64,000 bases of DNA from Candidatus Pacearchaeota archaeon (GTDB taxonomy: Archaea; Nanobdellota; Nanobdellia; Pacearchaeales; JAPDKA01). The notes beneath the pieces were generated by a model. The model made no database searches and was not told the origin of the DNA. It saw only the letters and a list, made by a program, of their open reading frames with translations. A program made the translations under genes and the position numbers. The stretch's first letter is position 1; every line of letters begins with the position of its first letter. Positions 1,046-64,000 of this stretch are shown here, piece after piece. The stretch covers positions 419,910 through 483,909 of the forward strand of contig JAWAFA010000001.1 of assembly GCA_038890875.1 (NCBI GenBank), in the 5' to 3' direction.

Positions 1046-1205
1046 CCTCTTTTTTGTTTTTTATTTAATTTTAAAAAAAATTATTTTAAAAATATTTTAA
1101 TCGTTAAAAATATATATTAAATGTTAAAAAGAAACAAAGGTTATAATTGATTTTCATGTGGAATTTTTATCAAAATTTTTAAAAATATAAAATATAACCA
1201 GTTAT

Positions 1206-2345: not shown

Positions 2346-2429
2346 AATAATCTTGAATTTTCTCCAAAGAAAAAGAGAATTAAAATGTAAAAAAACAAAA
2401 ATTTAAATTTAACAAAGATTAAATTAAAA

Positions 2430-17569: not shown

Positions 17570-20500
17570 TTAATGGCGCACTTTTTTCACTATTATTGCC
17601 ACGGCTAGGATTACTATGATTAAACCAAGTAAAGCAATTATAGCAATATGCCAGTTGCTTTTTAACCAACCTATTACCCCACCAGTTACTGGGATTATGG
17701 GTAATCTGTCGACAAATAAGCCAATTATTGCTGCAGAGTCTACCAACGCTACTACTTTTCCATTCTCTTTATCCCAAACACTCTCTATTTTCCTCCATCC
17801 ACCACCTTCATAATTATAGATAAACAAGTTAGCTCCTTCAGCGAACTCCTCATTGATCTTTATTATTAACTCTACATCTTCACCGAATCTCACAGCTGGC
17901 GTAAACTTGTACGCTCGCACTAAATAAACATCTTGTGGCAATGTTGGAAGCAGCGTTAAATCAGTGATTTTTTCAATTTTTATAGTATTTGGATCGATTT
18001 TATTATTATTGTTATTTACTACCTCTATACTTGATAGTAGCCTCACTATTACTAATCTATCATCACTTTTTATTTCAATAGCCTTAACTTTTGGTTTTGG
18101 CGTTGTTGTAACTGTTAAATTTGGAATAATTTTGCAATCTTGCGGGCAATAAACACTTTCATTGCCTTCACAAATGTTATTGCCACATATTGGCGCTACG
18201 AGAGCTTCTCTTCCTCCTCCACCTCTTTCCTCTACTATCTTTTGCACAACTCTAAAACTAATTGTGCTCCATGCTGAAGTTCCGTGAACATCAGTAACCT
18301 TTACTTTGGCAATATACCTTCCTGGATTGTTATACGTATGAGTTGCTGTTGAAACATTTATTGCACTATAATCAAATGTCCCATCATTTGTCCAGTCCCA
18401 TTCATATGTTATATTATCATTTGTATTAAATTGTCCTCCTATTAATGCATTGAATGAAATCGATTCATCTTCATAATAAGGAGATGGGCTTGTGATAACA
18501 ATTCTTACAGATGGTAATGCAGAACTATTACTTAAGTTTAGTGGGGTGTTATTTGTTGCATTATAAGTGAAATTTGTTGTTATTATAGTACCATTATAAA
18601 GAACATTATCAGTAACATTTGCATCTATTAATGTCGCATTTCCGAGTGTTGAATTTGTTATAATTGTATTGGTTGCCGTTATATTCTCTAAATCAGAATT
18701 AATAACAGTACTATTATTTAAACTTGAATTATTTATTGTTGAATTTGTGACGTTGGAATCATTGAGCATAGAGTTTGTAATTGTTGAATTGTTTGTTGTT
18801 GAATTTGTTAAAGTTGAGTTTTCAATCTCAGAGTTTTCTACAGTTGAATTTATGAGCATTGAATTTGCAACTATTGAATCGCTAATATTACTATAATCCA
18901 AATTTGAGCTTTCAATTGTTGAGTTACTAATATTTGAATAGGTGATATTCGATTCGTTTATTATAGCCTTATCAACATTGGAGTATGTTATATTTGAATA
19001 ACTAACGTTGGAGTAAGTAACATTTGACTGATATGTGTGTGAGTTCGTTAAGTTTGAACCAGTTAAGTTGTTAGTTGGTTGTGGGGGGTCATAGATGCCA
19101 TCAGCAAGATAGCAGTTTGAAGCTATTATACCTTTAACTGTTGCATTGATTACCGTACAATTATTTAAAATTGAATTATTAATTATTGATGCTGTCGCAT
19201 TTACAGCCGTTAGCCAGGAATTTTCTACAGTTGAATTATCTATATTTGAATCTAAGATTAAAATATCCTCATTAAAGTTACCTCCAGCTGATGCTTTAAT
19301 GGTTGAGAAATTCTTTATTATTGAATCATTTATATTATTAAATATTCCTGTTGACTGACTCACATAGAATGTGCCGTTCACTGTCGAATTAAATATCCAG
19401 CCAGTGTCAAGAGTTACTACACTTGTTGTTGTTGATGTAATATTACTAATGCTTGTATTTGAATTGCTTGTTGCAATTACATTTACAATATAAACCCCTG
19501 GATTGGAATCACTAACAGTGAGACTAACTATATAACTTCCCCCTTGATTTAACATAGGAGTTGTTGTTTCATTCAAAATTGCTTGATCAGCATTATTAAT
19601 ATTTTGTATTGTTAAATTAAAGTTGTCTTGAGTATCGCCGATGTTTGTTATATTTATTGTATAAATGGCTGGCTCAAGTAAGCCGACAGTTTGTGATGAT
19701 GGAGTTGCTGTTATGCTTACACCATAGTCTGGAACTGGATTAACTGTTACAATAATAGTGTCATTTGCACTGTATTCGCCATCCGATGCTATAAGTGTAA
19801 CCTCAGCAATTCCATTCCAATTTGGATTTGCTGTTATATTAACTCTTGTGCCAACAAATGTGACGATAACATTACTATTATTTGAAGTAAATGAATAAAC
19901 TAATGTTGCATTATCAACATCCGCAAAGTAATTTGTCATGTCAAGGCTATCATTGTAACTATCTTCGTCGAAAGTTACATCTGGAATTAAGGTGATTAAG
20001 TAAGGAGCATCATTTACAGGGACAACATTTATTGTAACCGTGGCTATATTACTATTAGCTTCTCCATCATTAGCAACATATGTAAAGCTATCTATACCAT
20101 TAAAGTTTGCATTTGGTATATATGTGAAGGAACCGTCAGAGTTGAGAGTTAAGACACCATTGGAGACGTTTGTTACTAAGATTGCTGAAAGTATATCAAT
20201 ATCAATATCAGAATCATTAACTAATAACCCTTGAGCTGTGGGAACAGTTAAGATGTTATCCTCATTTGTGTTATAAACATCATTTTGTATAACTGGAGGC
20301 GTATTTTTTATATCTTTTACTACTGTTATATTACCAGAAAACTCTATTCCATCAAACGCGCCAGCAATTACCAACACATCATCATTTTTATTACAGCCAG
20401 CTGAGGTTAAGCAGTCGAATGTATTATTCGTAGACCAGGTTTGTAATATAACTCCTGTTGCATTATTTCTAAATTCATAATAATAAGTGATAATATCACC

Positions 20501-23341: not shown

Positions 23342-25197
23342 TTTGCCTTAAAACCTAGATAAATTTCCCCAGATTTAATTTTGTTGCCAACAGTATTCAT
23401 TTCACCGCATCCAAAAATTCCCCAACTTTTTCTTTTTCCTTCACTACAAACACTGTAACTATTACGATTTTGATTTGTATCTAGAGAATATTTACTTTCA
23501 ACTCCCCACTTTTCATTTCCATAACCAAAAGTGAAACCATAATTAGGTCGATTCTTGTCAAAGTTAACATCAACACCACCATAAAAGCTTGTTGCATTTA
23601 ATAACTTTTCTATATCATTAATCTTATTCAAACCTTCAGGATTTGGTAGATAATTTAAATAAATTTTGTGTTGCCTATTGAAATAATTATTATTACCATA
23701 CCAAAGCGAGATTTTGTTATTTGCATCATCTTTGAAATAATTAATGATTAACGAGTTAGGACCAATATTATAAGCAAAATTTAAAATACCTTCGACATGG
23801 TCAGTGTTATCCACATTAGGTCCAATATTAACAAGAGGGACAAATTTTAATTCTAACTCTTTATGCTTATACTCTAAACTCGCTCCTATAGGAAAAACTC
23901 TTTTAATCTCTCTCATTTTGTCACTATATGATATTGTGTCATAATTTTGTATTTCGAAAGTATCACAAGAAACCTCTTCACCATTTATATAAACACATGT
24001 TGTGCCAGATGTTTTATTATTAACAATCTCTACTAAATCTAACTTATTCTTCACTCTACTTTCTTCGATCCCTCCGATTATCCCTCCATAAAGCCTTCCA
24101 ATTTTTTGCTTTGCTTTAATTCTTGCTTTTGTTAAAAGTTCATCTGTTTTGCTTTTTCCATTAACATTAATAAATGTTTCAATATCGCCTTGTGTTACCG
24201 TTCTAATTTCAAAAGGATTGTTCGTTATGTCTTCTTCGTAAAAAGGAGTTATTTCTTGATAAGTCTCATTTATATCATCTCTACTCATCTTAGTAGTAAT
24301 ACTAACATTCCCTTCAATATTCAAGAAGGCATTCTTCCAACCAATAGAGCCATGATATATCATTGGCATTTCTAATAAAGTTCCTTTTTCTTTTTTTTCA
24401 AAACTAATGCCCAGATCTCCATAGATATCACTTTCTCTACCTTTTCCGATCCCTTTCCTTCCCTCTCCAAACAACGTTACTCTTTGTTCTTTTCTTCCTC
24501 CCGTACCAAAAAAGAATACCTCAATATTATCTCTATTATTTTCACCAACATTTACTTTTGCATCATAACTAACAATTCCTTGACTATTATAATCTAAATC
24601 TCCTAAAAAAGAGACTGAACTAGGTTTTATTATTTTTATCTCATTTTGTCGAGGTGGTATTTGAGGTTTGATTTGCAATAGTTCTTGAGGTTTTGGCTTT
24701 TCTTTCTTTTCTTTTTCTTTGATGATAGTTTCAACTTGCTCAGAAATTATCTCTTCTTCTTTAGGTTTTTTCTTAACTTCTTGTGCCATCATCTCTTTTT
24801 TTTCTCCTTTGAATAAAACCCCATAAGATTTAGGATCGATTAATTTTTTAATCTCGTCCAAATTATTTGGTTGTAATGAGTAAACATAACCTCCTGCTTT
24901 AACAAAAATCTCTTGAGAATTATTTTGAATAAAAACTAATGTTACGGGATCAGACAAGTTTAAGCAATTACTAAGCACTGTTTGAATCTCAGGATCAACT
25001 ATTGTATACTCTGTTCCAAGTGAATATTCAATAGCTTTTACAGATGTTTTGTAGTCTTTACTTTCTTTTTTACTCCAAAAATCTTCAGCTCTTGGGCATC
25101 CTGACTGGTTTTCTAACCCTTGTGTTAAACCAAGACTACCAAGAGCAATTCCCAAAGCAAAAATTATGCTCTCCAGAGTTCTTTTCAATTTTGTCAT
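23335..25197 (-). CDS. Secreted 620-aa protein with a beta-strand-rich, OMP-like C-terminal domain. Co-transcribed with the giant surface protein (7-nt overlap).
   Basis: N-terminal signal peptide (IIFALGIALGSLGLTQG). Central K/E-rich linker. C-terminal approx. 300 aa with alternating hydrophobic dyads (FTFGYGNEKWGVESKYSL, GEIYLGFKAKW) ending in W. Confidence 0.55.
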   Translation of the reverse strand: MTKLKRTLESIIFALGIALGSLGLTQGLENQSGCPRAEDFWSKKESKDYKTSVKAIEYSLGTEYTIVDPEIQTVLSNCLNLSDPVTLVFIQNNSQEIFVKAGGYVYSLQPNNLDEIKKLIDPKSYGVLFKGEKKEMMAQEVKKKPKEEEIISEQVETIIKEKEKKEKPKPQELLQIKPQIPPRQNEIKIIKPSSVSFLGDLDYNSQGIVSYDAKVNVGENNRDNIEVFFFGTGGRKEQRVTLFGEGRKGIGKGRESDIYGDLGISFEKKEKGTLLEMPMIYHGSIGWKNAFLNIEGNVSITTKMSRDDINETYQEITPFYEEDITNNPFEIRTVTQGDIETFINVNGKSKTDELLTKARIKAKQKIGRLYGGIIGGIEESRVKNKLDLVEIVNNKTSGTTCVYINGEEVSCDTFEIQNYDTISYSDKMREIKRVFPIGASLEYKHKELELKFVPLVNIGPNVDNTDHVEGILNFAYNIGPNSLIINYFKDDANNKISLWYGNNNYFNRQHKIYLNYLPNPEGLNKINDIEKLLNATSFYGGVDVNFDKNRPNYGFTFGYGNEKWGVESKYSLDTNQNRNSYSVCSEGKRKSWGIFGCGEMNTVGNKIKSGEIYLGFKAKW

Positions 25198-26916: not shown

Positions 26917-27414
26917 TCAATAAATTAAAGCGATCACAACACCTCTAATTTGCTCAAATCTAACTTTTTCTATATCAGCATATTCATTGTTGTCGCCTTT
27001 TGTTATGGCATACCAACCTTTCTCATCATCGCCTATTTTTACAATTCTATGTATTATTACATCTCCAGAAACTGATCTATAAGAAATTATATCCCCCACC
27101 TGCAAATCACTTGGTTTTTCTGGTTTAATTTCAATAGCATTAGCTTCAACATCGAGTACAGGATCCATGCTTTTCGTTGCTGCAAATCTTACTAAAAAAG
27201 AGTTAGGTATTACAATCACAACTTTATCTTCATATATATGTATGCTACTTTCATTGATTCTATCCGCTGGCGAAGGTAAATCATTAGCTATACCAAATGG
27301 CTTTTCATTGAAAGAAAGCGCAAGCTGGCTTAAATAGAACATTGAAAATAATAATGCTAATAAAAAGAAAAATTGCAAAATTATCCAAATTTTGATTTTC
27401 ATTTTTATACTCAT
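26917..27414 (-). CDS. Signal peptidase I (archaeal/ER-type S26B, Sec11-like).
   Basis: N-terminal TM anchor. SMDP (SGSMEP-type) box, and GDNN box in ITKGDNNEYAD. Confidence 0.6.
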   Translation of the reverse strand: MSIKMKIKIWIILQFFFLLALLFSMFYLSQLALSFNEKPFGIANDLPSPADRINESSIHIYEDKVVIVIPNSFLVRFAATKSMDPVLDVEANAIEIKPEKPSDLQVGDIISYRSVSGDVIIHRIVKIGDDEKGWYAITKGDNNEYADIEKVRFEQIRGVVIALIY

Positions 27415-32413: not shown

Positions 32414-32881
32414 TTACTGTATTTTTAAAACTTTCCTTAAAACAATATTAAAAATCGAAGTAAAAATTATGAATGAAAGCAACCAGCCAGCACCATCCCC
32501 AACAATAGGCAAATTAGCTCCCCAACTTATTATATTCCCAACACCAGCAGCATCATAACTTTTTTTCAAAAACCAGAAAATAAAAATTAAAGGTAATAAT
32601 ATGATTAACAATGGTTTTATGCTTAATCTCATATTTTCCATACTTAACTTTACTAATTCATTATTCAATTCTTTTATCCTTTTTATATCGTTTGTTTTTT
32701 TCAATTCATCGCTGATAGTTTTCTGTTTTTCTTTTATCTCTTTTATCCTTCCCTGATCACTCAATACTTTGAACACCAAAACCTGAAAGAAAGTAATTAA
32801 TAATGAAATAATGATTATGCTAATTAAGCCAGGAGGTAGGCCTCCCAAACTATATGCAATAAATTCTGTCCAAAAACTCAT
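32414..32881 (-). CDS. DUF106 / EMC3-TMCO1-like membrane protein (archaeal YidC/Oxa1-like insertase candidate).
   Basis: TM1, then charged coiled-coil (KEIKEKQKTISDELKK...), then two further TM helices. 155 aa. Confidence 0.4.
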   Translation of the reverse strand: MSFWTEFIAYSLGGLPPGLISIIIISLLITFFQVLVFKVLSDQGRIKEIKEKQKTISDELKKTNDIKRIKELNNELVKLSMENMRLSIKPLLIILLPLIFIFWFLKKSYDAAGVGNIISWGANLPIVGDGAGWLLSFIIFTSIFNIVLRKVLKIQ

Positions 32882-32882
32882 T

Positions 32883-33173
32883 TTATTTTTTGTAATATTT
32901 TTTTACTACATTTATCAATCTTAAAAATAAAAACTCTTCATTTTCAAATATCTTCTTTTTTTCACTTTCATTCATTGGCGCTTCATTGAGGATATTTCTT
33001 AACTTTTCAACAAATCGATCTCTTCTAGACATATCAAGAATAGCCCAAACTTCATAGTTATTGTTAGGTAAGATAACCCCAATCTTTTCACATCCATCTC
33101 TCTCGTAATAAATATTATATCCTAACTCTACTTTGAATTTTTTTTCATTTTCCCTTTCGATATGCTCTTTCAT
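32883..33173 (-). CDS. Hypothetical 96-aa protein, last gene of the RSH-like module.
   Basis: 20-nt gap after the RSD gene. No motif recognised. Confidence 0.3.
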   Translation of the reverse strand: MKEHIERENEKKFKVELGYNIYYERDGCEKIGVILPNNNYEVWAILDMSRRDRFVEKLRNILNEAPMNESEKKKIFENEEFLFLRLINVVKKYYKK

Positions 33174-33193
33174 TTTAACTTTTTTAAACTTAT

Positions 33194-34273
33194 CTAACTT
33201 TGTTTTTCTTCATTTTCTTTTTCCATAATATAATTGTATAGCCCCTTTATAATTTTTTGTTTCTCTTTTGGGATATTCACTTTATTTAGATTTTCTTTAT
33301 ATCTTTCCAAATAAGCATTTCCAAACTCATTATTCTCTAAACTTTCTTTATCTGTAAATCTTACTTCAATACCTTCAATAACATTCGGCTGTCTTAAATT
33401 ATAATGCAAAGCATTATAACCGCTTTTTTCTTTTTTTTCTACACATTCTTTTATACAAAAATATTTCCCAATTCTACTAATTATGCTTTCAGCCAATTTA
33501 TAAAACTCTTTTCCAAAAATTTTATATTTTAAGACAAAATTAACTCCGCCAAGATCATCAATACATAGTTCACTTTTAATTTCATTATTTTTTTGATCTT
33601 CAATATAGTTTTTAATGACCTTACAAATGTCACTATCTTGTAAAGTTTTAATTATGCATCCAGGAATTTCACGAATCTTCTCATGTATCCTTACATTATC
33701 AGTTTTTAATATCAATTTTTTTAAAATGCCATCGTACTTACTTAATGAATTAACTGCTACACTAGTCCTTATCCTGCTTTTTAATGAAGCATAACTATTT
33801 GTAATCCCCTCCTTTAGCGTTTTTATTTCTGACTCTAAACATATAATATCTACTCCAAATTTAAGAAAATTTGGAATTTCTTTTTCAATCTTTTGGGCAA
33901 TACCAAAAATCTTTTTTTTAATTACTTTGTCAAGAAAACTTTTAGATTTCTTTACTCTAGTTATTATTGCTTCAATATCTTTTGTATTTATTGGGTAATA
34001 CTTCATATCGATCTCCATATCATATCTCATATCTTTTTCTACTTTTTGATTTTTTAATAGTGCGGCATATTCACTTCTTTTTTCTAAAATTACATACTTG
34101 AATTTATTTTCTGGAATGAATAATCTCACTATTCTTTCTAGATTCTCTTTTGTTTTATTTCTCCTATCTTTTAAAAGCAAATAAATTGGTTCAAACAGGC
34201 TTTCATCATCTTCATTTATGCATTTATAAATATATTGCCCTACAGGTATTTCTGCAATTTCAATCCTTTCCAT
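33194..34273 (-). CDS. RelA/SpoT-homologue synthetase-domain (RSD) nucleotidyltransferase protein (small-alarmone-synthetase-like) with an about 170-aa N-terminal extension.
   Basis: C-terminal region SRIRTSVAVNS...IREIPGCIIKT...SGYNALHYNLRQPN...IEGIEVRFTDKES...NEFGNAYLERYK parallels RelA/SpoT synthetase motifs (RxKxxxSi, DixGiRvi, GYqSLH, vEvQIRT, AhhGxAAHwxYK). Confidence 0.6.
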   Translation of the reverse strand: MERIEIAEIPVGQYIYKCINEDDESLFEPIYLLLKDRRNKTKENLERIVRLFIPENKFKYVILEKRSEYAALLKNQKVEKDMRYDMEIDMKYYPINTKDIEAIITRVKKSKSFLDKVIKKKIFGIAQKIEKEIPNFLKFGVDIICLESEIKTLKEGITNSYASLKSRIRTSVAVNSLSKYDGILKKLILKTDNVRIHEKIREIPGCIIKTLQDSDICKVIKNYIEDQKNNEIKSELCIDDLGGVNFVLKYKIFGKEFYKLAESIISRIGKYFCIKECVEKKEKSGYNALHYNLRQPNVIEGIEVRFTDKESLENNEFGNAYLERYKENLNKVNIPKEKQKIIKGLYNYIMEKENEEKQS

Positions 34274-34274
34274 T

Positions 34275-35402
34275 TTATCGCAACGTTTTTTCCAATTTAT
34301 AAATTCCTGGAATTAATTTGAATTTTCTTCTTTTCATTTTTTCTGCAAATTTTTTAAACCCAATCAAATCAAGATGGGCTCTTAATTCAATATTGCTCGC
34401 ACTATCTAAATCTAAACCTAAAGTTTCCTCTTTTGCATAGCCAAGAAGAATTTTGCCATATCTCATCCATGTTCCATCAAGTAAATTAGGTGAAGGGAAA
34501 GTTGCTCTTTCAAAACCGCGGCTCTTATCATAATTAGCAACAAGTTCATAATTCTTCTTTATTACATCTTTCGTCAAGCTCACCATTTCTTCGAAATAGT
34601 ATGTCCATGCTTGCGCTCTTTCTTCGATACTTTCTACAAGTTTTCTCGTAAGACATTGCACTTTCTTATAGAACTTTTTCTCTTTCTTTAATCCCTTAAT
34701 CTTTGTTTTAACTTCATTTGTTAAGAGGAGACCTTTATAAAATGAATAAAGAGCTGATTGAACATTAAAAGGGCTCTTTTCTGCTTCAAGTGGTGTTGGC
34801 AAGGATTTAATATTATCGAGCATGTCGGCAAGTTTTATTTCTATAGAACGCATAATGATTATATTTTTATCTTTGTGATTAAATCGGTATTCAATAAAAT
34901 CTTTTATTTTATCTACCCTAGCCTTATTATTCCCATTTTGTTCTATTTGTTTTTTTATTTTTTCATTTAACTCATTGATTACTTCTTTGTTATAGAAGAG
35001 ATTGTAGAGATAGTCAAAATAGGTTTGGTTTGGTTGTTTTGTTAATCTATATACAAGTTGTAAGATAAAGTTATAATCTCTTTTATATTTTTCATCGAGC
35101 AAGTTAAATCTCTCATAAAGCTCATAAAGTTTAAATGCAAAAGCTGTTAGCTCTTGCCAAAAATTATTGATATCACTTTTACCCTTTATCTTTTCTTCAA
35201 TCGTGTCATGAAGTAAAGCAGACGCTTTAATGATATAACTTTCACTTATCTGATTTAAGTAGCGGCAAACATTTTTAGGATGTTCAATAAATGGACTACC
35301 ATTTTTTCTGAAACTTCCTTTATGATAAGTCAAGGCTAAGCCTTCAAACTCATCAATAAGCTTTTTTTCCAAATCTTCAAATTTAATATTCATATTTTTC
35401 AT
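34275..35402 (-). CDS. RelA/SpoT-type HD-domain (p)ppGpp-hydrolase-like protein (SAH-like) with an about 180-aa C-terminal extension.
   Basis: GSPFIEHPKNVCRYL...ASALLHDTIEE (HD motif as in Rel/SpoT: GePYIxHPLxVA...AALLHDvvED) and IEIKLADMLDNIKSL (Rel/SpoT KLADRLHNMRTL motif). 1-nt spacing to the RSD gene. Confidence 0.65.
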   Translation of the reverse strand: MKNMNIKFEDLEKKLIDEFEGLALTYHKGSFRKNGSPFIEHPKNVCRYLNQISESYIIKASALLHDTIEEKIKGKSDINNFWQELTAFAFKLYELYERFNLLDEKYKRDYNFILQLVYRLTKQPNQTYFDYLYNLFYNKEVINELNEKIKKQIEQNGNNKARVDKIKDFIEYRFNHKDKNIIIMRSIEIKLADMLDNIKSLPTPLEAEKSPFNVQSALYSFYKGLLLTNEVKTKIKGLKKEKKFYKKVQCLTRKLVESIEERAQAWTYYFEEMVSLTKDVIKKNYELVANYDKSRGFERATFPSPNLLDGTWMRYGKILLGYAKEETLGLDLDSASNIELRAHLDLIGFKKFAEKMKRRKFKLIPGIYKLEKTLR

Positions 35403-35468
35403 TTTTGTATATTTAATAATTCAATATTTATAAACATTTTTATTTTTTATCACTTTAGAATTAAAAAA

Positions 35469-35891
35469 TTACTTACTTATTTTCTTTGTTAACTCTTCAA
35501 ATTTTCTAAGTTTTTCTTCCCCCATTTCAGCCTTAAGCTTTTCCCTTAACTTTTTGCTTTTTCTAATTCTAAGCATAATCAAATGTTCAAGAAAGTAGGT
35601 AAATATAAAAAATAAAAAAATTATTATTGCTGCTATAAGCGGGCCTAGCATTTTCAATAGCGCCCCAACAAGCATTGCTATTACACCAGTCATAGCCAAT
35701 ATTATAACAAGCCCTAAAGTAATAAAAAAAATAGTTATTGATGAAAAAAGAGTGATGTCTTTGATTATACTATAAAACCAGGCCAAAAAGAAAATCAGAA
35801 CAATCCCACACAACCCAAACAAAACTAGATCAGTACTTCTTGTTCCAAAGAGTGCTTGTAAAAGGCCTATCCATGAAAAAGTTAGAGGCAT
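35469..35891 (-). CDS. Small membrane protein, member of a four-gene paralogous tandem array (C-terminal ...KLRKFEELTKK).
   Basis: 3-4 TM helices. C-terminal amphipathic tail sharing the FEELTK motif with 36501..37046. Confidence 0.45.
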   Translation of the reverse strand: MPLTFSWIGLLQALFGTRSTDLVLFGLCGIVLIFFLAWFYSIIKDITLFSSITIFFITLGLVIILAMTGVIAMLVGALLKMLGPLIAAIIIFLFFIFTYFLEHLIMLRIRKSKKLREKLKAEMGEEKLRKFEELTKKISK

Positions 35892-35935
35892 AAATACTTA
35901 ATCAAAAAGATTTTAAATAATTTTTTGATTAATTA

Positions 35936-36499
35936 TTATTTGAATTTGCCAACTTCTTTTAATATTTCCATACCCTTCTTAATTTCTACTCCTTTTTTAT
36001 GCGCTTCTATCATTGCTTTTCTTCTAAAGATCCATTTGTTAAACCCAGATAAACCAAGATGAACAATTACTAAAGCAACAAAAGCACTTACTATGACTAT
36101 GGCAACAGCCAAAACACCAAGCCCAGCTGTGATGCCAAAGATATAATGTGCTAACTTCAAAATCCCTTTTGTTAAGGCTGCTATAACTGCCAAACCAAAG
36201 CCCAGAATGTAAGAAGTACTTTTCTTAAACATGGTGAAAGTTTCTATTATATCACTAAATGCAAAGAAAAGCATGAAAAAAATCACAACAAGGATTGTAA
36301 CAAAACGCCAATCAGCTCCGGTGGTTAGTGCACTATAGCCAAAAGCATCAGCAATCCACTTTCCTATGGCTCTGCCAATATCTCCAATTGAAGTAGCTTG
36401 TCCACCTTGTGCAAGAATAAAAGGCGAAATAAATAAAAAAGAGACTAGTAATAAAGCAATAAGTTTCCACGCTTTTTTACTTTTCATTTTCTTTTTCAT
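35936..36499 (-). CDS. Secreted/membrane protein, paralogue of 36501..37046 (signal peptide ending ILAQGGQ).
   Basis: Signal peptide + 4 TM. Shares N-terminal ...LAQGG and overall topology with the upstream paralogue. Confidence 0.45.
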   Translation of the reverse strand: MKKKMKSKKAWKLIALLLVSFLFISPFILAQGGQATSIGDIGRAIGKWIADAFGYSALTTGADWRFVTILVVIFFMLFFAFSDIIETFTMFKKSTSYILGFGLAVIAALTKGILKLAHYIFGITAGLGVLAVAIVIVSAFVALVIVHLGLSGFNKWIFRRKAMIEAHKKGVEIKKGMEILKEVGKFK

Positions 36500-36500
36500 T

Positions 36501-37046
36501 TTATTTTGTTAATTCTTCAAATTCTTTAAGTTTTCGCCATGCTGTTGCTGGTTCCATTGCTCCCTTCAAAGCTTCAGCCTTAACTTTTCTCTTGAGCGCC
36601 CACTTAAAAGCCTTATCAGAATACCATGCTAGTCCAATAAAAATTATAAATGCAAGCACAAGTTCAGCTGTAACTGCAAATGCACCTAATGTAGCTACTA
36701 ATCCAAGTAGTAAAGAAGCCAGATATGTTAGAGCTCTACTTAAAGCAATAATAAAACTCAAACCAATTGAAATTATTAATACTGTTCGGCGTGAAAAAAA
36801 AGGTGCAGTCAAAGCTAAAATATCAACAAAAGCCGATGCAAAAATCAAAATTAATAAGATAAAAAGTAATAATTGGCCGACAGTGGTTACATCAGAAAAA
36901 CCAAACAGCCATTTGAGCCATGTAGGTGTCTTAAGTGGTGCATTAAGCCCTCCCTGCGCCAAAACAAATGAGGGAAGAAATATGAACGCAAGCAAAAAAA
37001 TAATTGATATTGGAACAATAAATGAAAGCGATTTACTCTTTTTCAT
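36501..37046 (-). CDS. Secreted/membrane protein, paralogue (signal peptide ending FVLAQGG; C-terminal KLKEFEELTK).
   Basis: Same architecture as 35936..36499. Same C-terminal motif as 35469..35891. Confidence 0.45.
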   Translation of the reverse strand: MKKSKSLSFIVPISIIFLLAFIFLPSFVLAQGGLNAPLKTPTWLKWLFGFSDVTTVGQLLLFILLILIFASAFVDILALTAPFFSRRTVLIISIGLSFIIALSRALTYLASLLLGLVATLGAFAVTAELVLAFIIFIGLAWYSDKAFKWALKRKVKAEALKGAMEPATAWRKLKEFEELTK

Positions 37047-57532: not shown

Positions 57533-58696
57533 TTATTTAAACGGGCTTATTTTTTTTAATTTTTTTATTGCCTCAGGTAACACCTCTAGAAAATAGTCTG
57601 TGTCTCTCTTTGTTGTGTACCTACCGAGCGTTACACGTAGGCTTCCATGGGCTTCTTGTGGCTTTAGACCAAGTGCAAGTAGCACGTGGCTTGGCTCAAG
57701 TGTTTTTTCACTGCAAGCACTCCCTGTACTTGTGGCTATTCCTTTTTCATTTAACATCAGCACAAGAGCCTCCCCTTCTATACCATAAAAACTAAAATTT
57801 GCATTGTTAAATATCCTCTTCTCGCGCGAGCCATTAAGTCTTACTTTTATAAAATCATAATCAAGAACTTCATCGATTATTTTATCACGAAGCTTAGCTT
57901 GCCTTTCTCCTTCTTTATCGAGGTTTTTTAAACATAACTCAATTGCTTTTGCAATTCCAACAATCCCCGGCACATTTTCAGTAGAACTTCTTAAGCCATT
58001 TTCCTGGCCTCCACCATGCAAAAGCGGCATTAGCCTAATATCAGCTCTCTTATATAAAAGAGCAGTTCCTTTTGGGCCATAAATTTTATGCCCACTTGCA
58101 CTTAGCATCCCTATGTTTAATTCTTTAACATCAAAATGCATTTTTCCAATCGCTTGAACCGCATCAGTATGGAAACAAATTCCTTTTGCATTGCAAATTT
58201 TTGCTATCTCGTCTATTGGCTGGATAGTGCCTATTTCATTATTCACAGTCATAACACTGATAAGGATAGTATCTTTTCTAATCTTTTGTTCAAGCTCATC
58301 AAGCTTAACTATCCCTTCACTATCAACATTAACAAACTCGACTTCAAAGCCCTGTTCCTTTAACCATTTAGCTGGATTTATAACTGCTTTATGCTCAATT
58401 GTGCTTATTAAAATATGCTTTCCTTTTTGCTTATTGGCTAGGGCAAAACCCTTAATTGCTAGATTATTTGCCTCTGTTCCCGAGCTTGTAAAAATTATCT
58501 CGTGAGAATTTGCATTTATCAAACGGGCAATCTTTTCTCTCGCATCATCTATGGCTTGCTTTGCTTCTTGGCCAAAGCTATGAAGTGAGCCTGGATTGCC
58601 AAACTTCTTGCTAAACCAAGGTTGCATAGCTTTTAATACTTCTTGGTCAAGCGGTGTTGTTGCAGCATAATCAAGATAAACACGCTTCATTATCAA
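57533..58696 (-). CDS. iscS: Cysteine desulfurase IscS/NifS.
   Basis: YLDYAATTP, PLP lysine in SASGHKIYGPKGTALLY, active-site loop SSGSACSS-like STGSACSEKTLEPSH. Confidence 0.9.
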   Translation of the reverse strand: MIMKRVYLDYAATTPLDQEVLKAMQPWFSKKFGNPGSLHSFGQEAKQAIDDAREKIARLINANSHEIIFTSSGTEANNLAIKGFALANKQKGKHILISTIEHKAVINPAKWLKEQGFEVEFVNVDSEGIVKLDELEQKIRKDTILISVMTVNNEIGTIQPIDEIAKICNAKGICFHTDAVQAIGKMHFDVKELNIGMLSASGHKIYGPKGTALLYKRADIRLMPLLHGGGQENGLRSSTENVPGIVGIAKAIELCLKNLDKEGERQAKLRDKIIDEVLDYDFIKVRLNGSREKRIFNNANFSFYGIEGEALVLMLNEKGIATSTGSACSEKTLEPSHVLLALGLKPQEAHGSLRVTLGRYTTKRDTDYFLEVLPEAIKKLKKISPFK

Positions 58697-59030
58697 TACA
58701 AAATTTATTTATTTCTTTATTATACTTTTTACATACCTTACAAGTTATCCCTAGTTTTTTTGCCAAATCTAAAAGCAAATTAATCTCTTTCAAGAGTAAT
58801 TTTTTATTTTTAATTAATCTATTTGCAGATTTTTCAAACTCTTTTTTCATTTTATTAAATTTAACCTCTTGCCCTCGTTTTCTATGCAAATATTGGCTTA
58901 CTGCTGAAGGTGTTGTTGCCAGGATATTTGCTATCTCAGTAATCTTTGTTTTATCTTTTAATGCTTTTGCCAGATTACATTTTATGGCCGGTATGACGTA
59001 CCATGTTTCTATCTCTTGAGGGTGTATCAT
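58671..59030 (-). CDS. HTH (sigma-70 region-4-like / DUF134-like) transcriptional regulator with a C-terminal Cys4 cluster. Candidate regulator of iscSU.
   Basis: ITEIANILATTPSAVSQYLHRKR helix-turn-helix. C-terminal CKVCKKYNKEINKFCIDNEAC. Overlaps the iscS start by 26 nt on the same strand. Confidence 0.45.
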   Translation of the reverse strand: MIHPQEIETWYVIPAIKCNLAKALKDKTKITEIANILATTPSAVSQYLHRKRGQEVKFNKMKKEFEKSANRLIKNKKLLLKEINLLLDLAKKLGITCKVCKKYNKEINKFCIDNEACLS

Positions 59031-59098: not shown

Positions 59099-59554
59099 TT
59101 ACTTCTTGCTTTGCAAAAACAAAATTCTTATTTTACCAGAATAGTTTCCATAACTCGCATTTGCTGGAACAATTGCAATTAGAGTTATAGTTTTGTTTTC
59201 CTTTGGCAATATCACTCTAGAGCTATCTTTAGCATAGACAAAGTTTGATATGTTCCCTTCTACTTCAATATTAATCTTAAAACTTTTGTTTAAACTATTA
59301 TAAATAAAAATGTCCTTTGTAGAACTTCCATTTGGTGGCACTATCCCAAAATGCACATACTCTTGAGATAAGTCAAAACCAACTTTATCGCCAACAATAA
59401 GATAAGCATCATATTCAAATATTTTGTAAACCTCTAACTTCTTTAATAAACCAATCAAACCAATAACTATTGCAATCAACAATAATAAAATTAAAATGAT
59501 TCGATATTTATCTTTTCTGTTACTTATAATAATTTTGCTTTTAGTTTGCTTCAT
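59099..59554 (-). CDS. N-terminally anchored beta-rich surface protein (last gene of the surface-protein locus).
   Basis: Basic N-terminus + TM (YRIILILLLLIAIVIGLIGLL), then a beta-sandwich-like glycosylatable domain. Confidence 0.4.
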   Translation of the reverse strand: MKQTKSKIIISNRKDKYRIILILLLLIAIVIGLIGLLKKLEVYKIFEYDAYLIVGDKVGFDLSQEYVHFGIVPPNGSSTKDIFIYNSLNKSFKINIEVEGNISNFVYAKDSSRVILPKENKTITLIAIVPANASYGNYSGKIRILFLQSKK

Positions 59555-59555
59555 T

Positions 59556-60737
59556 TTATTTTCTTTTAAATTTCTTTTCTTCTTTTTTTCTTCTATCTTT
59601 TTTTATTTTCTTAATAATTATGACTAAAAAAGTTATAAGTATGACTATTATTATAATTAAAATTATCAAAATAACTAGCATCATATTAATTCTCTGTTTG
59701 AATCTAACTTGGCCATACGCATTTGATGTTGAATTTTTATAATATAATGTTATATTCATTAAATAATCTCCGGGTTCAATTCCTTTTGTATCAAACCAGC
59801 TTTTTACTTTTTTTCTTTCCCATGCTCCAATTTCAAACATTGGCGTCTTGAAATCCATTACTTTTGTTTTTAGATCGCTTTCCCAAACTTCAACATTGCC
59901 ATAAACATTTTCGATTTTTTCATTCCACTTGCTTTGTAACTCTAATATCAAAGGTTCTATACTCTCTACTTTGAATTCTTTGTTAAAATCAAGGATTTCA
60001 ATTAAGATATTCCCTATCTTAAATTCTTTAACATCTTCGGCAGTTTTATTATCATAATTAACAATTACTTTTGCTCTATAAATTCCTTCGTGATTGCCAG
60101 AACTGTTCCAACTTTCTTCTAGAAATTTTTCCTCATTTGCATTAATTATTATTTGATCAATTTTTTTATGATAAATTTTATTGCCCCCTTCATAAATCTC
60201 TAATTCTAGCTCCGCTTTGGCAACAACTTTTCCCATATTTTTTATTTTTATATTAAATTGTGCTGTTTCATTTATAGCAATATCCTTAGCTTCTAGTTCA
60301 ACTTTAAGATATGCTCCTTCATAAGGAACAAAAATATCAATGGGAGTTTGCACTGCTGTAAAAGCAGCCATTACCCCAACATCACTTATTGGATACTCTC
60401 GCGCCCCTATTAAAATTCGGTGCATCCCTGGAGTAAGATTAGTTGTTAATGGTAAAGTAACATATGTTGTAAATTTTTTTGCTCCGTTTATATTAATAGG
60501 TTCACTTAATTTTACAGAATTGTTAAACTCTGGATCAAGATATTTAACATAAAGTTCAAGAGCTGTGCCTGATGGCTTCATTCCTATAACATAAAAATCA
60601 AAAGATTCTTTATAACCCGGTTCAAATTGTATGTAAATTTTAGCAGGAGTTATCCCTATCCCATAAGCAAAATCTGTAGAAATTATCAAAAAAATAAGAA
60701 AAAGAAAAAAAAACATAAAGAATATTTTATTCTTCAT
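59556..60737 (-). CDS. Double-anchored (N-terminal signal/TM + C-terminal TM) surface protein, paralogue B.
   Basis: N-terminal ISTDFAYGIGITPAKIYI. Internal GNILIEILD...SKWNEKIENVYG...ITLYYKNS shared with 61664..62899. C-terminal TM + KKIKKDRRKKEEKK. Confidence 0.5.
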   Translation of the reverse strand: MKNKIFFMFFFLFLIFLIISTDFAYGIGITPAKIYIQFEPGYKESFDFYVIGMKPSGTALELYVKYLDPEFNNSVKLSEPININGAKKFTTYVTLPLTTNLTPGMHRILIGAREYPISDVGVMAAFTAVQTPIDIFVPYEGAYLKVELEAKDIAINETAQFNIKIKNMGKVVAKAELELEIYEGGNKIYHKKIDQIIINANEEKFLEESWNSSGNHEGIYRAKVIVNYDNKTAEDVKEFKIGNILIEILDFNKEFKVESIEPLILELQSKWNEKIENVYGNVEVWESDLKTKVMDFKTPMFEIGAWERKKVKSWFDTKGIEPGDYLMNITLYYKNSTSNAYGQVRFKQRINMMLVILIILIIIIVILITFLVIIIKKIKKDRRKKEEKKFKRK

Positions 60738-60789
60738 CCTAAATGATTTCTATTTTTTTACCTTTATACAATCTTTACAATCTTTAGCT

Positions 60790-61392
60790 TTAAGCTGCGG
60801 TTGCAGTTGCAGTAAACGTATCTGATCTTGCTCCTGGTAGGGCATCTGAAGGTATTACAATTCTTACGTCGACATCTACGGCATCACTTGAATCAACAAA
60901 TTGTAATGGATTACATACAGTTGTTCCAGGGCTTGTTGCATTAACATCTGTATAAGTTGTAGGTGTTATACCAATACATGCATTGGGTTCATTTACCGTC
61001 ATCTTATATTGATATGAGGGATTTGTCCCACCAAGCAACACTGTGGCATTTTTACCTGTCGCAAGCTGAAGTGTTACATTTGTGTTTCCTATGTTCTCAA
61101 TTGTAAAACCATTATTCTGAGTAGTAAAACTTGTACAATCCGCTCCATTTGTGCCTTCTGTATCAAGAGTACACGAAGAGTAACCTTCAGTAACCCAACC
61201 GCTACCCCAATTTATTACGTCATCTGTGAAATTTATTGCTGTATACCCTGTTATTGTTACGCTTAATGTTCCTGTATCGGTAACTTTGCCTCCAATTTGC
61301 CTTGGTAGAAAAATTCCAACTAACCCTATCACTATAGCTACTGCAAGTAAGATCGCTAATATATTGTTTGAAATTTCTCCTTTTCTATTCAT
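60790..61392 (-). CDS. Type IV pilin-like protein with class III signal peptide.
   Basis: MNRKGEISNNILAILLAVAIVIGLVGIF (basic-KG then hydrophobic helix, prepilin-peptidase-type site). Thr/Asn-rich beta domain. C-terminal VIPSDALPGARSD motif. Confidence 0.5.
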   Translation of the reverse strand: MNRKGEISNNILAILLAVAIVIGLVGIFLPRQIGGKVTDTGTLSVTITGYTAINFTDDVINWGSGWVTEGYSSCTLDTEGTNGADCTSFTTQNNGFTIENIGNTNVTLQLATGKNATVLLGGTNPSYQYKMTVNEPNACIGITPTTYTDVNATSPGTTVCNPLQFVDSSDAVDVDVRIVIPSDALPGARSDTFTATATAA

Positions 61393-61420
61393 TTTTATTT
61401 TTTTATTTATATTTAGATTT

Positions 61421-61624
61421 TTATTTTGCTATAACAAATCTTACGCTAGCATGATCGTTGGTTGTTGTTGGTTTGCCTATGCCTAGCATAAGATTCCCAG
61501 TGCTTTCGCTTTCTTTTATTTCAAGAAACTTAACTTGTGGCTGAACTATGTTTACTACAAGAGAAGTTATTGCAAGCAAAAGCACGATTATAACCAAAAC
61601 TGTAAGCAAAGTTTTTGATGTCAT
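61421..61624 (-). CDS. Small N-terminally anchored protein (possible minor pilin-like subunit).
   Basis: 67 aa: TM helix TLLTVLVIIVLLLAITSLVV, then a short soluble tail. Confidence 0.3.
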   Translation of the reverse strand: MTSKTLLTVLVIIVLLLAITSLVVNIVQPQVKFLEIKESESTGNLMLGIGKPTTTNDHASVRFVIAK

Positions 61625-61663
61625 CTTTCCTCTTTTATTCTTTTATTTGTATTTAATTATTAT

Positions 61664-62899
61664 CTATTTAATTATTTTTAAATTTTTTCTTTTACTTAAA
61701 AAATAATAAAATAAAACAAAAACAAAAATTATAAAAGTTATAACAAATACCGTAACTAATCCTATAACTGCTTTTCTAAGTAAATCACTTTCTTTAGTTA
61801 TTACATTTATTTGACCTACTTTACTTCTGCTCTCATTTAAATAAAATAAAGTTATATTTATATCATAAACACCAATAGGAATTTTTGTTTCCCAGTAAGT
61901 GCTAATTAACTTTTTTTCATTAGGAGCAAAATCATACCATGAGCTTCGTAGTTCATCAATCTCTCCGCTTTTATTATATATCTCTATTTTAGCGTAAACA
62001 TTTTTTATTTTTTTATTCCATTCACTTTTCGCTTCAATATCAAATTTGTTTACTTCATCAAAAACAAAATATCTAGTATAATCAAGAATTTCTATCACCG
62101 CATTGCCAACAACAAAATCTTTACCAATTTCAATAACATAGTTATCATAATTTATAGTAGCCGTTGCCCTATAAGTTCCATTTTTAAAATTTTCCATATT
62201 CAAAGAATTAAAGAATTCTGTTGTTTGCTTCAAGTCTAAAGATTTTTTCTCTGTTTTAACCAATTCTAAAAGTTTTTCTTCATTATCATCGGTCTGATAA
62301 ATTTCATAAGTTACAAATATAGAATCTATTCTTTCTGTTCCTTTGTTTATAACATAAGTTACTAAATCAATAGTTTCATCTGATTTTACAACATTAAAAT
62401 TAACATCAATATATTTTCCAATGTAAGGAACAAAAATTTCTACTTTTGAAATAACCTTAAGTTTAGCATAAATATTCTTAGTATCAGTTTCTTGTCCTAA
62501 TCCTCCTAAATTTAAATTTTCTTCAATTATAATTTTTCCTTCATGCTTTCCTGGAATTGAAGCAAGGTCATTGATTTTTTTAAAATGCCATTTAAATGGT
62601 TTTATTTCTTCATAGCTTTTAACAATAACTGATTTATCATCAATCTCGATATATTCTGCAAGTTCACCGCTTGCATAAATTGATAAATTTAGGTCTTTAT
62701 GTTCATTGTTTATAATATAATAAGTAAATTCATTCTCTTTTTTCAAAATTTCAACGTCAATTGACTTTACTGCAGGGCTTATCCCTAAGGCAGTTACTTT
62801 ACTTAGTAAAAAAATGAATATAATAATGAATATAATAATTACAATTAAGCTTTTTACATTTTTTCTACTTTTTTCTTTTCTTTTACTTTTTTTTACCAT
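61664..62899 (-). CDS. Double-anchored surface protein, paralogue A of 59556..60737.
   Basis: N-terminal basic + TM ... ALGISPAVKSIDVEI. Shared GNAVIEILD...SEWNKKIKNVYA...ITLFYLNES motifs. C-terminal TM + KRKNLKIIK. Confidence 0.5.
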   Translation of the reverse strand: MVKKSKRKEKSRKNVKSLIVIIIFIIIFIFLLSKVTALGISPAVKSIDVEILKKENEFTYYIINNEHKDLNLSIYASGELAEYIEIDDKSVIVKSYEEIKPFKWHFKKINDLASIPGKHEGKIIIEENLNLGGLGQETDTKNIYAKLKVISKVEIFVPYIGKYIDVNFNVVKSDETIDLVTYVINKGTERIDSIFVTYEIYQTDDNEEKLLELVKTEKKSLDLKQTTEFFNSLNMENFKNGTYRATATINYDNYVIEIGKDFVVGNAVIEILDYTRYFVFDEVNKFDIEAKSEWNKKIKNVYAKIEIYNKSGEIDELRSSWYDFAPNEKKLISTYWETKIPIGVYDINITLFYLNESRSKVGQINVITKESDLLRKAVIGLVTVFVITFIIFVFVLFYYFLSKRKNLKIIK

Positions 62900-62911
62900 T
62901 TTCTCTTTGTC

Positions 62912-64000
62912 TTATTCACCTATTTCAGCAGTTATTGTTATAATTGAATCTCTTGAGCCAGGAGGTTCATCACTAGGCACAATAAGCTTTATTTCGATCT
63001 CTGCCGTATCACTTTCATTTTTATACTTTAGATCGGCAATATCAATATCTATATTAGTTGCTGACATATTTGTCCAATTCATCGTTGAAAAATTTTCATT
63101 AAAACTACCACTTTCATTGATACCTATTTTATATTGATAATAACTAGTTGGATTTGGTTGCATAAGCCAAAGATCACTCCCATTAATAATGATGTCTATA
63201 ATAACATTCCCATCATTTTGCACAATGATAGGCGGAGGAGTATTGTCTGTTGTATCATTTTCTTCATTTGGCAACATTGAACTAAAATTAATACTGTTTA
63301 TTGGTAAAGAAATTATTAAAGACGATAATATTGTAAAGTTTCTTGTGGCTGACCAGCCACTATATTTTTTACCATCATAAGCACGAACTTTCCAATATAG
63401 AGTGCCTATAGGTAAATCGTTTATTGGTTCATACGAAGTTAAATTACCCCAATTTTGACTATGATTTCCCGAACCTTCTGTAATATTGGTAACATTAATA
63501 ACAATTGTATTACTTATAAAATTTGAAGAATTCGCAACAAGAAGATCATAAGTTATTATATCTCCTTCAGCATCACTTGAGTTATACCATTCGAAATTTG
63601 GTATTCTACTATAAAGTTGCGCTCCAGCATCAGGCTTATAAAGTCGCGGTACTGTTGGGGGAGTTTGCATTACTAAATAAGGAGGGGATTGATAACCAGG
63701 GATAACATAATAACTGTTGTTGAATGTGTCATTCCATATGTAATCATTTCCAGTTCCTTGCGCAACAAAGGCACTTGCCTTAAAATAGCGACAATCACCT
63801 TGATTTAAACCAGCTATTGATTCAACCATAGAGCAATTAGTTATCCCTTGGGTTACACATCCTTGGCAATAAATTATTCGTAGGCCACCAGGGCCAAAAC
63901 AAATAGGATTGACTGTATCATCAACTAAAATTAAATCAATATCGACTGTGCCATTGACATAACTAATATAAGTTGCATCATTACTAACATTAGTACAGCT
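62912..64000 (-). CDS. Large secreted N-glycosylation-sequon-rich protein (N-terminus beyond the window edge), sharing the C-terminal VPSDEPPGSRDS motif with the pilin-like protein.
   Basis: Frame stays open upstream of the annotated Met all the way to position 64000. Numerous N-x-S/T sequons. C-terminus IEIKLIVPSDEPPGSRDSIITITAE. Confidence 0.45.
   Translation of the reverse strand, partial: SCTNVSNDATYISYVNGTVDIDLILVDDTVNPICFGPGGLRIIYCQGCVTQGITNCSMVESIAGLNQGDCRYFKASAFVAQGTGNDYIWNDTFNNSYYVIPGYQSPPYLVMQTPPTVPRLYKPDAGAQLYSRIPNFEWYNSSDAEGDIITYDLLVANSSNFISNTIVINVTNITEGSGNHSQNWGNLTSYEPINDLPIGTLYWKVRAYDGKKYSGWSATRNFTILSSLIISLPINSINFSSMLPNEENDTTDNTPPPIIVQNDGNVIIDIIINGSDLWLMQPNPTSYYQYKIGINESGSFNENFSTMNWTNMSATNIDIDIADLKYKNESDTAEIEIKLIVPSDEPPGSRDSIITITAEIGE

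Follow-up and report, generated by a model that had tools for sequence, protein, structure and literature searches.

The cell-surface locus analysed here occupies positions 59,099-64,000 of a 64,000-nucleotide stretch of DNA (hereafter the window) from the genome of a Candidatus Pacearchaeota, a DPANN archaeon, and is best introduced through the described systems that it resembles. Closest in architecture are the WxL/Csc clusters of Lactobacillales and Bacillales, which encode a small WxL protein, a large WxL protein and a WxLIP protein with a DUF916-DUF3324-transmembrane helix layout (PMC10599100, PMC9772566, PMC1534035), and for which a strand from the WxLIP is predicted to fill a gap in the WxL sandwich (PMC10599100). 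Donor-strand filaments are known from archaea as the Sulfolobus threads of Saci_0406/0405 (PMC9715654), the AbpA bundling pili of Pyrobaculum (PMC9245690), the cannulae of Pyrodictium (PMC12518558) and the haloarchaeal tafi (PMC11821415). The threads are processed by signal peptidase I (PMC9715654), and threads and tafi are both independent of prepilin peptidase (PMC9715654, PMC11821415). Both the TasA and the tafi systems are marked by signal peptidases I of their own, sipW adjoining tasA and TafD lying in the tafi cluster (PMC11821415). Further points of comparison are the chaperone-usher pili (Fim, Pap, CFA/I) and the TLP-1 fibrils (PMC11494351).

With about even confidence, I read the locus as a Sec-exported adhesin complex, most likely a thin fibre formed by beta-strand complementation, and not as type IV pilus machinery. 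Strand-complemented assembly is suggested by the parts list, which comprises two secreted proteins without an anchor (the small P200 and the giant Big), membrane-anchored partner proteins, and a copy of the P200 strand in a small membrane protein, s67. The system is real, widespread and without annotation, and its six-gene set is conserved across DPANN. A first-pass annotation of this DNA had suggested that the locus could be an "uncharacterised pilus/fibre or attachment apparatus", and as a fibre or attachment apparatus this is still the best general description. Gene order, homologies, topology, domain folds, signal-site statistics and signal peptidase I synteny were computed in this study.

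Gene layout of the locus

Six open reading frames (ORFs) make up the locus, all on the minus strand and each recovered where the first-pass annotation had placed it, with short intergenic gaps (1-52 nucleotides; 1, 52, 28, 39 and 12 in order of position). They are transcribed in the order Big, A411, s67, P200, A393, E151, and the earlier description of a cell-surface locus was upheld for what is a co-transcribed set of genes. The features, with the nearest signal peptidase gene, are as follows.

62912..64000, minus strand: Big fragment, the C-terminal 362 amino acids (aa) of a giant secreted protein, truncated by the window end
62915..63349, minus strand: P200-like beta-sandwich of Big, at its extreme C-terminus, which ends IEIKLIVPSDEPPGSRDSIITITAE (62924-62998)
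61664..62899, minus strand: A411, 411 aa, signal peptide, three immunoglobulin (Ig)-like domains, C-terminal membrane helix and basic tail
61421..61624, minus strand: s67, 67 aa, N-terminal membrane helix, ~20-residue linker and one beta-strand
60790..61392, minus strand: P200, 200 aa, signal peptide, N-terminal extension strand and beta-sandwich
59556..60737, minus strand: A393, 393 aa, signal peptide, three Ig-like domains, membrane helix and basic cytoplasmic tail
59099..59554, minus strand: E151, 151 aa, uncleaved N-terminal membrane anchor and one Ig-like domain
26917..27414, minus strand: archaeal-type signal peptidase I, 32 kb from the cluster and outside the operon here

Five of the six locus proteins were rich in N-x-S/T sequons, at 1.2-5.5 per 100 aa against a background of 0.48 (window median), a 2.5- to 11-fold enrichment; the Big fragment has 20 in 362 aa and s67 has none. 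From these counts, the locus proteins are probably N-glycosylated. A scan for promoters and terminators with bacterial-type signals was uninformative, the host being an archaeon.

P200 and Big share a beta-sandwich domain

P200 (60790-61392) starts with MNRKGEISNNILAILLAVAIVIG, the N-terminal sequence given in the first-pass annotation, and is built from a signal peptide (residues 1-37; 61282-61392), an extension strand TDTGTLSVTITGY (residues 38-50; 61243-61281) and a beta-sandwich (residues 51-200). An AlphaFold2 (AF2) model from a 61-sequence alignment, with a mean predicted local distance difference test score (pLDDT) of 92.3, has a helix at residues 9-28, followed by 24 non-helical residues and an eight-strand sandwich. 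The N-terminal extension is conserved, with alternating hydrophobic residues and the consensus T-[GA]-x-[VA]-N-[LV]-T-[IV], and C139 and C160 are invariant in the 61 aligned homologues. In total, 63 homologues of P200 were collected, and the resulting profile retrieved 2219 clusters at 50% identity among 1.84 billion representatives, 1513 of them at E 1e-10 or better. Nearly all cluster representatives are 190-230 aa long, and in the few large proteins the domain is C-terminal. Neither P200, nor s67, nor the C-terminal domain of Big belongs to a Pfam or NCBIfam family. In one related locus (L060, 9974-11605), a single 543-aa ORF fuses P200 and A393, which is either a real fusion or the result of a lost stop codon.

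The frame of Big is open to base 64000, so that the ORF is incomplete in the window, and the 305-aa protein reported at first for the sixth ORF has to be abandoned: in a near-identical sister assembly (L001), where positions 1-3462 continue window positions 62912-64000, the same gene encodes at least 1153 aa with NosD/parallel-beta-helix repeats and is truncated there too. Big contains near-perfect tandem repeats of 21 residues, NNTITNNTVNSNNYGVYLASS. Every assembly found breaks inside these repeats, and exact look-ups of A393 and A411 returned no record; since all assemblies end inside Big, its N-terminus and upstream neighbours were not recovered for this genome. The domain order of Big is beta-helix repeats, a fibronectin type III (FN3)-like domain and, last, the P200-like sandwich. 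A profile search of the PDB with the Big fragment gave nothing. In complete Big homologues a signal peptide is present, in some of them with the L-T-G-x-x site also described below for P200. A C-terminal anchor is missing from P200 and Big homologues alike.

The ends of P200 and Big had been described as near-identical over ~28 aa. The likeness itself was confirmed (BLASTP E 1e-9 over 101 residues), but its extent was not: judged by profile comparison, it is homology of a whole beta-sandwich domain (~150 aa) and not a 28-aa tag, since hhalign aligned Big with the P200 family at a probability of 98.8% (E 4e-17, P200 residues 41-198). The P200 hidden Markov model (HMM) built here scored the window copy at 4e-30, and the same domain ends 20 Big homologues, with the consensus PxxExxGxxSSTxTFTAxLxE.

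Conservation of the C-terminal motif in orthologues, a point singled out in advance, was found for P200 (60796-60873): P181, S182, D183, G187, D191, T192, T194, A195 and T196 are invariant or at least 90% conserved among 61 homologues, whose consensus is IPSDAxxGxKTDTFTATATA. The idea that the motif is a signal for sorting, assembly or donor-strand exchange survived in part. The motif may plausibly contribute to an interface for assembly or strand acceptance, but an archaeosortase-type (PGF-CTERM-like) sorting signal was rejected, as the proteins end just past their last beta-strand and have no membrane segment.

P200 carries a signal peptidase I-like site and is unlikely to be a type IV pilin

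The first-pass annotation had assigned P200 a class III signal, that is, a type IV pilin signal. P200 would then be cleaved after K-G by a prepilin peptidase and assembled, through its hydrophobic N-terminal helix, by an ATPase-driven machine encoded elsewhere in the genome, a model that I consider very improbable. It does draw on real features of the protein: MNRKG|EISNN (K-G-E-I) fits a FlaFind-like pattern, and the ~30 closest homologues of P200 keep the sequence KGEISNN. Type IV pili are also often encoded by DPANN genomes. A PDB profile search with P200 gave nothing useful, and its only sequence match (E 5) was to a Natrinema pilin, through the hydrophobic segment.

Signal-site statistics over 130 non-redundant family members spoke against this assignment. 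A [KR]-G near the start of the hydrophobic segment was present in 32/130 and the FlaFind-like pattern in 26/130, all within one clade, the window's own, and the motif is thus missing in ~75% of the family, whereas a [TVIL]-G-x-[AVSG] site past the hydrophobic segment, usually preceded by a proline, was found in 120/130 (92%). G35 of P200 is invariant in the first 31 aligned sequences and at least 90% conserved in all 61. By its sequence, the post-helix site looks like a signal peptidase I site, and cleavage there would give a mature P200 with the N-terminus T-D-T-G-T-L-S-V-T-I-T.

The structural predictions pointed the same way. The 20-residue helix of the AF2 model and the non-helical linker after it are unlike the alpha-1 helix of a pilin, which continues into the head domain; Pilin_N matched one of 61 P200 members (E 0.75), and no type IV pilin was among the top 50 Foldseek matches in the PDB. 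The P200 domain, moreover, also ends a giant protein, which is incompatible with a type IV pilin core. No A24 prepilin peptidase, T2SSE or T2SSF was detected among the ~50 of ~70 window ORFs of at least 110 aa with Pfam results, and no prepilin peptidase, pilus ATPase or T2SSF was recurrent across 64 related loci. The sole GxxGSGKTT-type ATPases in the related loci, SRP54 and FtsY, were rejected as pilus ATPase candidates.

It was signal peptidase I that proved syntenic instead. An archaeal enzyme of this type lies within or beside the cluster in 5/64 related loci (TIGR02228, E 1e-12 to 1e-16), in two of the five between the A411-type gene and s67, and these cluster-embedded peptidases have secondary matches to the SipW model (E 1e-6 to 1e-10). 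No such gene lies in the operon of the window. The copy at 26917-27414, the only archaeal-type signal peptidase I of the window, scored E 7e-44 against an HMM of the cluster-embedded peptidases and is the candidate processing enzyme for P200, Big, A393 and A411. Taken together, the type IV pilin label for P200 is not supported and should be dropped.

s67 consists of a membrane helix and a strand resembling that of P200

In ~50 loci, s67 lies immediately upstream of P200. Its strand, TGNLMLGIG (61475-61501), is followed by no globular domain, and an alignment of ~50 family members showed the conserved motif x-G-N-[VI]-x-[LV]-x-[IV]-E and revealed neither a conserved cleavage site nor a domain. 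Over helix, linker and strand, the protein matches the first 50 residues of P200 (hhalign probability 75%, E 2.6e-5), and the P200 HMM cross-matched s67 members down to 1e-11. A role as a leader peptide or toxin was rejected, given the conserved membrane helix and the strand homologous to the P200 N-terminus. I propose that s67 is a membrane-anchored donor strand.

Within a locus, the s67 and P200 strands were more similar to each other (13.1) than after shuffling (10.4 +/- 0.55; 0/5000 shuffles reached this value), and their central residues co-vary, L occurring with L in 27/33 cases and V/I with V/I in 16/17 (Fisher p 2e-7). In the light of the controls described further below, this co-variation is suggestive only.

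The anchored partners resemble WxLIP proteins

A393 and A411 had been described as paralogues with anchors at both ends, which proved correct: they are 26% identical over their full length (BLASTP E 9e-26), and both begin with a signal helix and carry a membrane helix at the C-terminus (AF2 helices 4-20 and 352-392). The A393 model (pLDDT 88) consists of Ig-like domains at residues 28-137, 144-242 and 246-347, with the membrane helix encoded at 59613-59684. Cleavage is predicted at about AYG|IGITPA, and the mature N-terminus IGI[ST]PA is conserved. The middle domain (144-242; 60012-60278) is WxLIP_HBD/CARDB-like: WxLIP_HBD (DUF3324) matched 3/14 family members in Pfam, at best with E 2.9e-8, and CARDB 6/14, while the window copy of A393 reached 19.3 bits against a WxLIP_HBD cut-off of 28.9. 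DUF916 was not detected in the A393 family, and a PDB profile search with A393 returned only small CARDB-like structural-genomics domains. A411 gave weak Pfam matches to WxLIP_HBD and CARDB. Its first domain is of the E151 type, the E151 HMM, which scores its own window copy at 8.5e-38, matching domain 1 of A411-type proteins at E ~1e-20. E151 itself has weak Pfam matches to Cep192_D4 and a HYDIN-type Ig domain.

Each sandwich-bearing gene has its own partner gene. A393 directly follows P200 in nearly all loci, and E151 follows A393 in most. An A411-type gene comes directly after Big in every related locus with a labelled ORF after Big, or, in 13 loci, after one extra ORF of ~164 aa. This extra ORF (e.g., L017, 7986-8480) encodes a membrane helix and an Ig/FN3-like domain; there is no room for it in the window, where the gap between Big and A411 is 12 nucleotides.

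The likeness to WxL/Csc clusters is extensive. In both systems, a small secreted protein consists of little more than one domain, the same domain is always C-terminal in a large secreted beta-helix/Ig adhesin beside an anchored partner, the partner, of ~350-400 aa, combines a signal peptide and tandem Ig-like domains with a membrane helix at its C-terminus, and there are small additional anchored proteins. A further parallel is the prediction that the anchored partner contributes a strand by which the sandwich of the secreted domain is completed. The WxLIP_HBD match in the middle domain of A393 is a genuine, if partial, sequence link. On the other side, the WxL domain, WxL motifs and DUF916 are undetectable here, and membership of the WxL systems is therefore not established; the WxL domain (PF13731) was absent from 61 P200 members even at E 1, and the C-terminal consensus of P200 reads TFTATATA and not [LIV]TWxL. 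The DPANN partner has three Ig domains where the WxLIP has two, these archaea have no peptidoglycan and no LPxTG/sortase component, the hosts are DPANN and not Firmicutes, and the DPANN cluster adds the strand-only s67 and an N-terminal extension on the small subunit.

These parallels bear on a second explanation, in which the locus provides a WxL-cluster-like display without polymerisation, with Big docking one-to-one on A411, and P200 on A393 and/or s67, and no fibre being formed. I regard this explanation as possible but rather unlikely. The architecture parallels that of WxL clusters point by point (a domain-only small protein, a large adhesin and an Ig-Ig-transmembrane partner), and the WxLIP_HBD matches and the adjacent A-type partner of each sandwich-bearing gene also fit it. 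The missing PF13731 and DUF916 do not, and it leaves the conserved extension strand of P200 and its strand-only paralogue s67 unexplained. In addition, the best fold matches of P200 are polymerising pilins, and many loci hold two to three P200 paralogues, like major and minor pilins, although WxL clusters can likewise hold two small WxL proteins.

The P200 fold weakly resembles donor-strand-exchange subunits

In a Foldseek search of the PDB with the P200 model, the best matches were dominated by subunits of donor-strand-exchange fibres, namely TLP-1a/b (pond fibrils), FimG/F/A/I, PapE/A, CfaB and the Pyrodictium cannula protein CanA (template modelling (TM) score 0.51). TasA and AbpA were absent from the top 50 matches, and homology of P200 to TasA, camelysin or AbpA was rejected, there being no Pfam or NCBIfam match and no useful match in the PDB profile search. 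The sole recurrent Pfam signal for P200 was DUF4402, sub-threshold in 8/61 members; in the one homologue examined, the match spanned the whole sandwich at 19.5 bits against a cut-off of 25.2.

Chaperone-usher pili and TLP-1 fibrils are thus the best, albeit weak (E ~1e-2), structural matches to P200, and in the model proposed here the parallels with chaperone-usher pili continue at the level of parts: a tip adhesin with a C-terminal pilin domain, a subunit made of an N-terminal extension and an incomplete Ig fold, a basal terminating element, Ig-like chaperones and a conserved subunit C-terminus. The differences are equally clear. DPANN hosts are single-membrane archaea that lack an outer membrane, and neither the locus nor the related loci encode a beta-barrel usher. 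The terminator here would be a strand-only membrane protein and not a modified pilin, and the Ig-like partners are membrane-anchored, with homology to PapD not established.

With the archaeal donor-strand filaments, the locus has in common beta-sandwich subunits with an N-terminal strand, processing by signal peptidase I (putative here), the lack of an ATPase and heavy glycosylation, which is predicted from sequons in the present case. Saci_0405 of the Sulfolobus threads, a proposed cap with a donor strand but no acceptor site (PMC9715654), parallels s67, although s67 offers no more than a strand on a membrane helix and lacks a pilin-like fold. The PDB profile search with P200 revealed no sequence similarity to threads, AbpA, CanA or TafA. 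The known filaments, unlike the present locus, have no double set of WxLIP-like Ig-transmembrane partners and no giant adhesin bearing the subunit domain, and export in the locus is expected to be by Sec and not by Tat.

The six-gene set is conserved across DPANN

A scan of one genome per species yielded 63 loci, in which synteny was evaluated using iterated HMMs of the six window proteins. The loci are mostly labelled Pace-, Woese-, Nano- or Parvarchaeota, and several only "archaeon". Five of them (L020, L024, L032, L046 and L062) are labelled "uncultured Methanosarcinales archaeon", a label or binning that is doubtful, the other taxon-labelled loci being DPANN. The conserved order is Big (700-2600 aa), A411-type, s67, P200, A393-type and E151, sometimes with a second P200 after it, and the core of s67, P200, A393 and E151 is present in ~50/64 loci.

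Two further groups of genes accompany related loci and are both absent from the window. In 29 loci (e.g., L034, 10691-19622, and L041, 12134-20520), mostly just downstream of the cluster, there are genes for large Cys-rich proteins (700-1400 aa) with two anchors, and a MoxR ATPase/DUF58-like/VWA-like triad, named from sequence and not from a Pfam scan, comes next in 9-12 loci.

The synteny also bears on a simpler explanation, according to which the six proteins are merely co-expressed envelope glycoproteins, for example S-layer-associated or nutrient-binding ones, with common Ig-like folds and no assembly by strand complementation. Ig-like and CARDB-like domains with a "VP.D..PG.Y" hairpin are indeed very common in archaeal surface proteins, the fold matches of A393 are generic, and every mechanistic step of the strand model is inferred. 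Set against this are a gene order that is strictly kept across deeply diverged DPANN lineages, the secretion of P200 and Big without an anchor, the conservation of the strand-only s67 beside P200, and an extreme C-terminus that is invariant in both sandwich-bearing proteins. I consider this explanation improbable.

A model of strand-complemented assembly

Cleavage, glycosylation, strand insertion, polymerisation, polarity and a role in attachment are all inferred from the architecture, and the model of a strand-complemented fibre would run as follows. Signal peptidase I would free P200 and Big, neither of which has its own anchor, from the membrane. Mature P200 would then consist of a short N-terminal donor strand and an acceptor beta-sandwich, and A393 (with P200) and A411 (with Big) may hold or present the unassembled subunits, with E151, a single Ig domain on an N-terminal anchor, among the membrane-anchored partners. 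Big would be the tip adhesin at the distal end, its last domain accepting a strand. The N-terminal strand of one P200 would fill the open sandwich edge of the preceding subunit, and the strand of s67, a donor-only element, would fill the last P200 and tie the chain to the membrane. Because the energy of folding would drive strand exchange, no ATPase would be needed, and no ATPase family was recurrent in the loci.

Polymerisation of P200, to which I give roughly even odds, is preferred here over one-to-one docking, which I consider less likely. A more far-reaching generalisation is offered only tentatively: Pace-, Woese-, Nano-, Parv- and Aenigmarchaeota may share an ATPase-free and usher-free donor-strand pilus with Big at its tip, a shaft of ~160-residue sandwich subunits, s67 as a tether and membrane-tethered, WxLIP-like Ig chaperones. 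Such a pilus would serve these ectosymbionts as their organelle for attaching to hosts and would be related, on the archaeal side, to Gram-positive WxL complexes as well as to chaperone-usher pili. No publication linking DPANN to such a system was found in a literature search of incomplete coverage.

Several results weigh against the strand-complemented fibre. The structural matches of P200 were weak (best E 7e-3, ranging to 0.1; TM-scores of 0.35-0.5), and they show a fold class and not homology. The open groove in the sandwich is postulated and not read from the monomer model, and the results do not distinguish polymerisation from one-to-one docking. Furthermore, hhalign aligned the N-terminal strand of P200 with the last strand of the FN3-like domain of Big, so that Big may have a donor strand of its own. 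The window protein has an unusual Val at -1 of the proposed P200 cleavage site, and since KGEISNN is so well conserved in the window's clade and fits the FlaFind-like pattern, prepilin-type processing could still take place there. Lastly, in the control for the s67/P200 co-variation, unrelated A393 columns were associated as strongly as the strand residue, and on the tree about three independent switches were concordant, as against six tips that were discordant. The co-variation was downgraded accordingly, the state of the residue being largely a clade marker.

Genomic surroundings

The window comes from a genome of low GC content (~31%). Downstream of the cluster lie housekeeping genes (cysteine desulfurase and NifU), and the remainder of the window is likewise of housekeeping character (gyrase, SecY, ribosomal proteins and EF-1alpha). 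The cluster is followed immediately by an ORF of 119 aa (58671-59030, minus strand) that belongs to no Pfam or NCBIfam family and overlaps the cysteine desulfurase gene at the latter's start, and a PhageMetallopep ORF (PF18894; 55180-55590, minus strand) stands amid the housekeeping genes. A second giant surface protein of 1923 aa (17570-25197, minus strand), with Big_9, cadherin-like, PKD and lamin-tail domains, is unrelated to the cluster and is followed by a 620-aa ORF without a Pfam family. Finally, six co-directional ORFs of 155, 359, 375, 140, 187 and 181 aa (32414-37046, minus strand) have no significant Pfam family, with weak EMC3/TMCO1-like and HD matches under the Pfam thresholds.

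Significance for DPANN biology

Pace- and Woesearchaeota occur in abundance and have mostly escaped cultivation. They are presumed to live attached to other cells, and no defined attachment structure is known from them. The cluster described here is a candidate means by which DPANN symbionts attach to other cells. It brings out a very large family without annotation (the 2219 clusters described above, with no Pfam model), and its strictly conserved six-part gene set allows a concrete and testable assembly model to be proposed. If this model is true, archaeal strand-complemented fibres would extend past the few cases from thermophiles and halophiles, a strand-only membrane protein would be a new solution for anchoring such a fibre, and pilus-like assembly would gain a link to the WxL clusters of Gram-positive bacteria, which are themselves poorly understood. 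P200, s67 and A393 can serve as markers for attachment genes in DPANN metagenomes.

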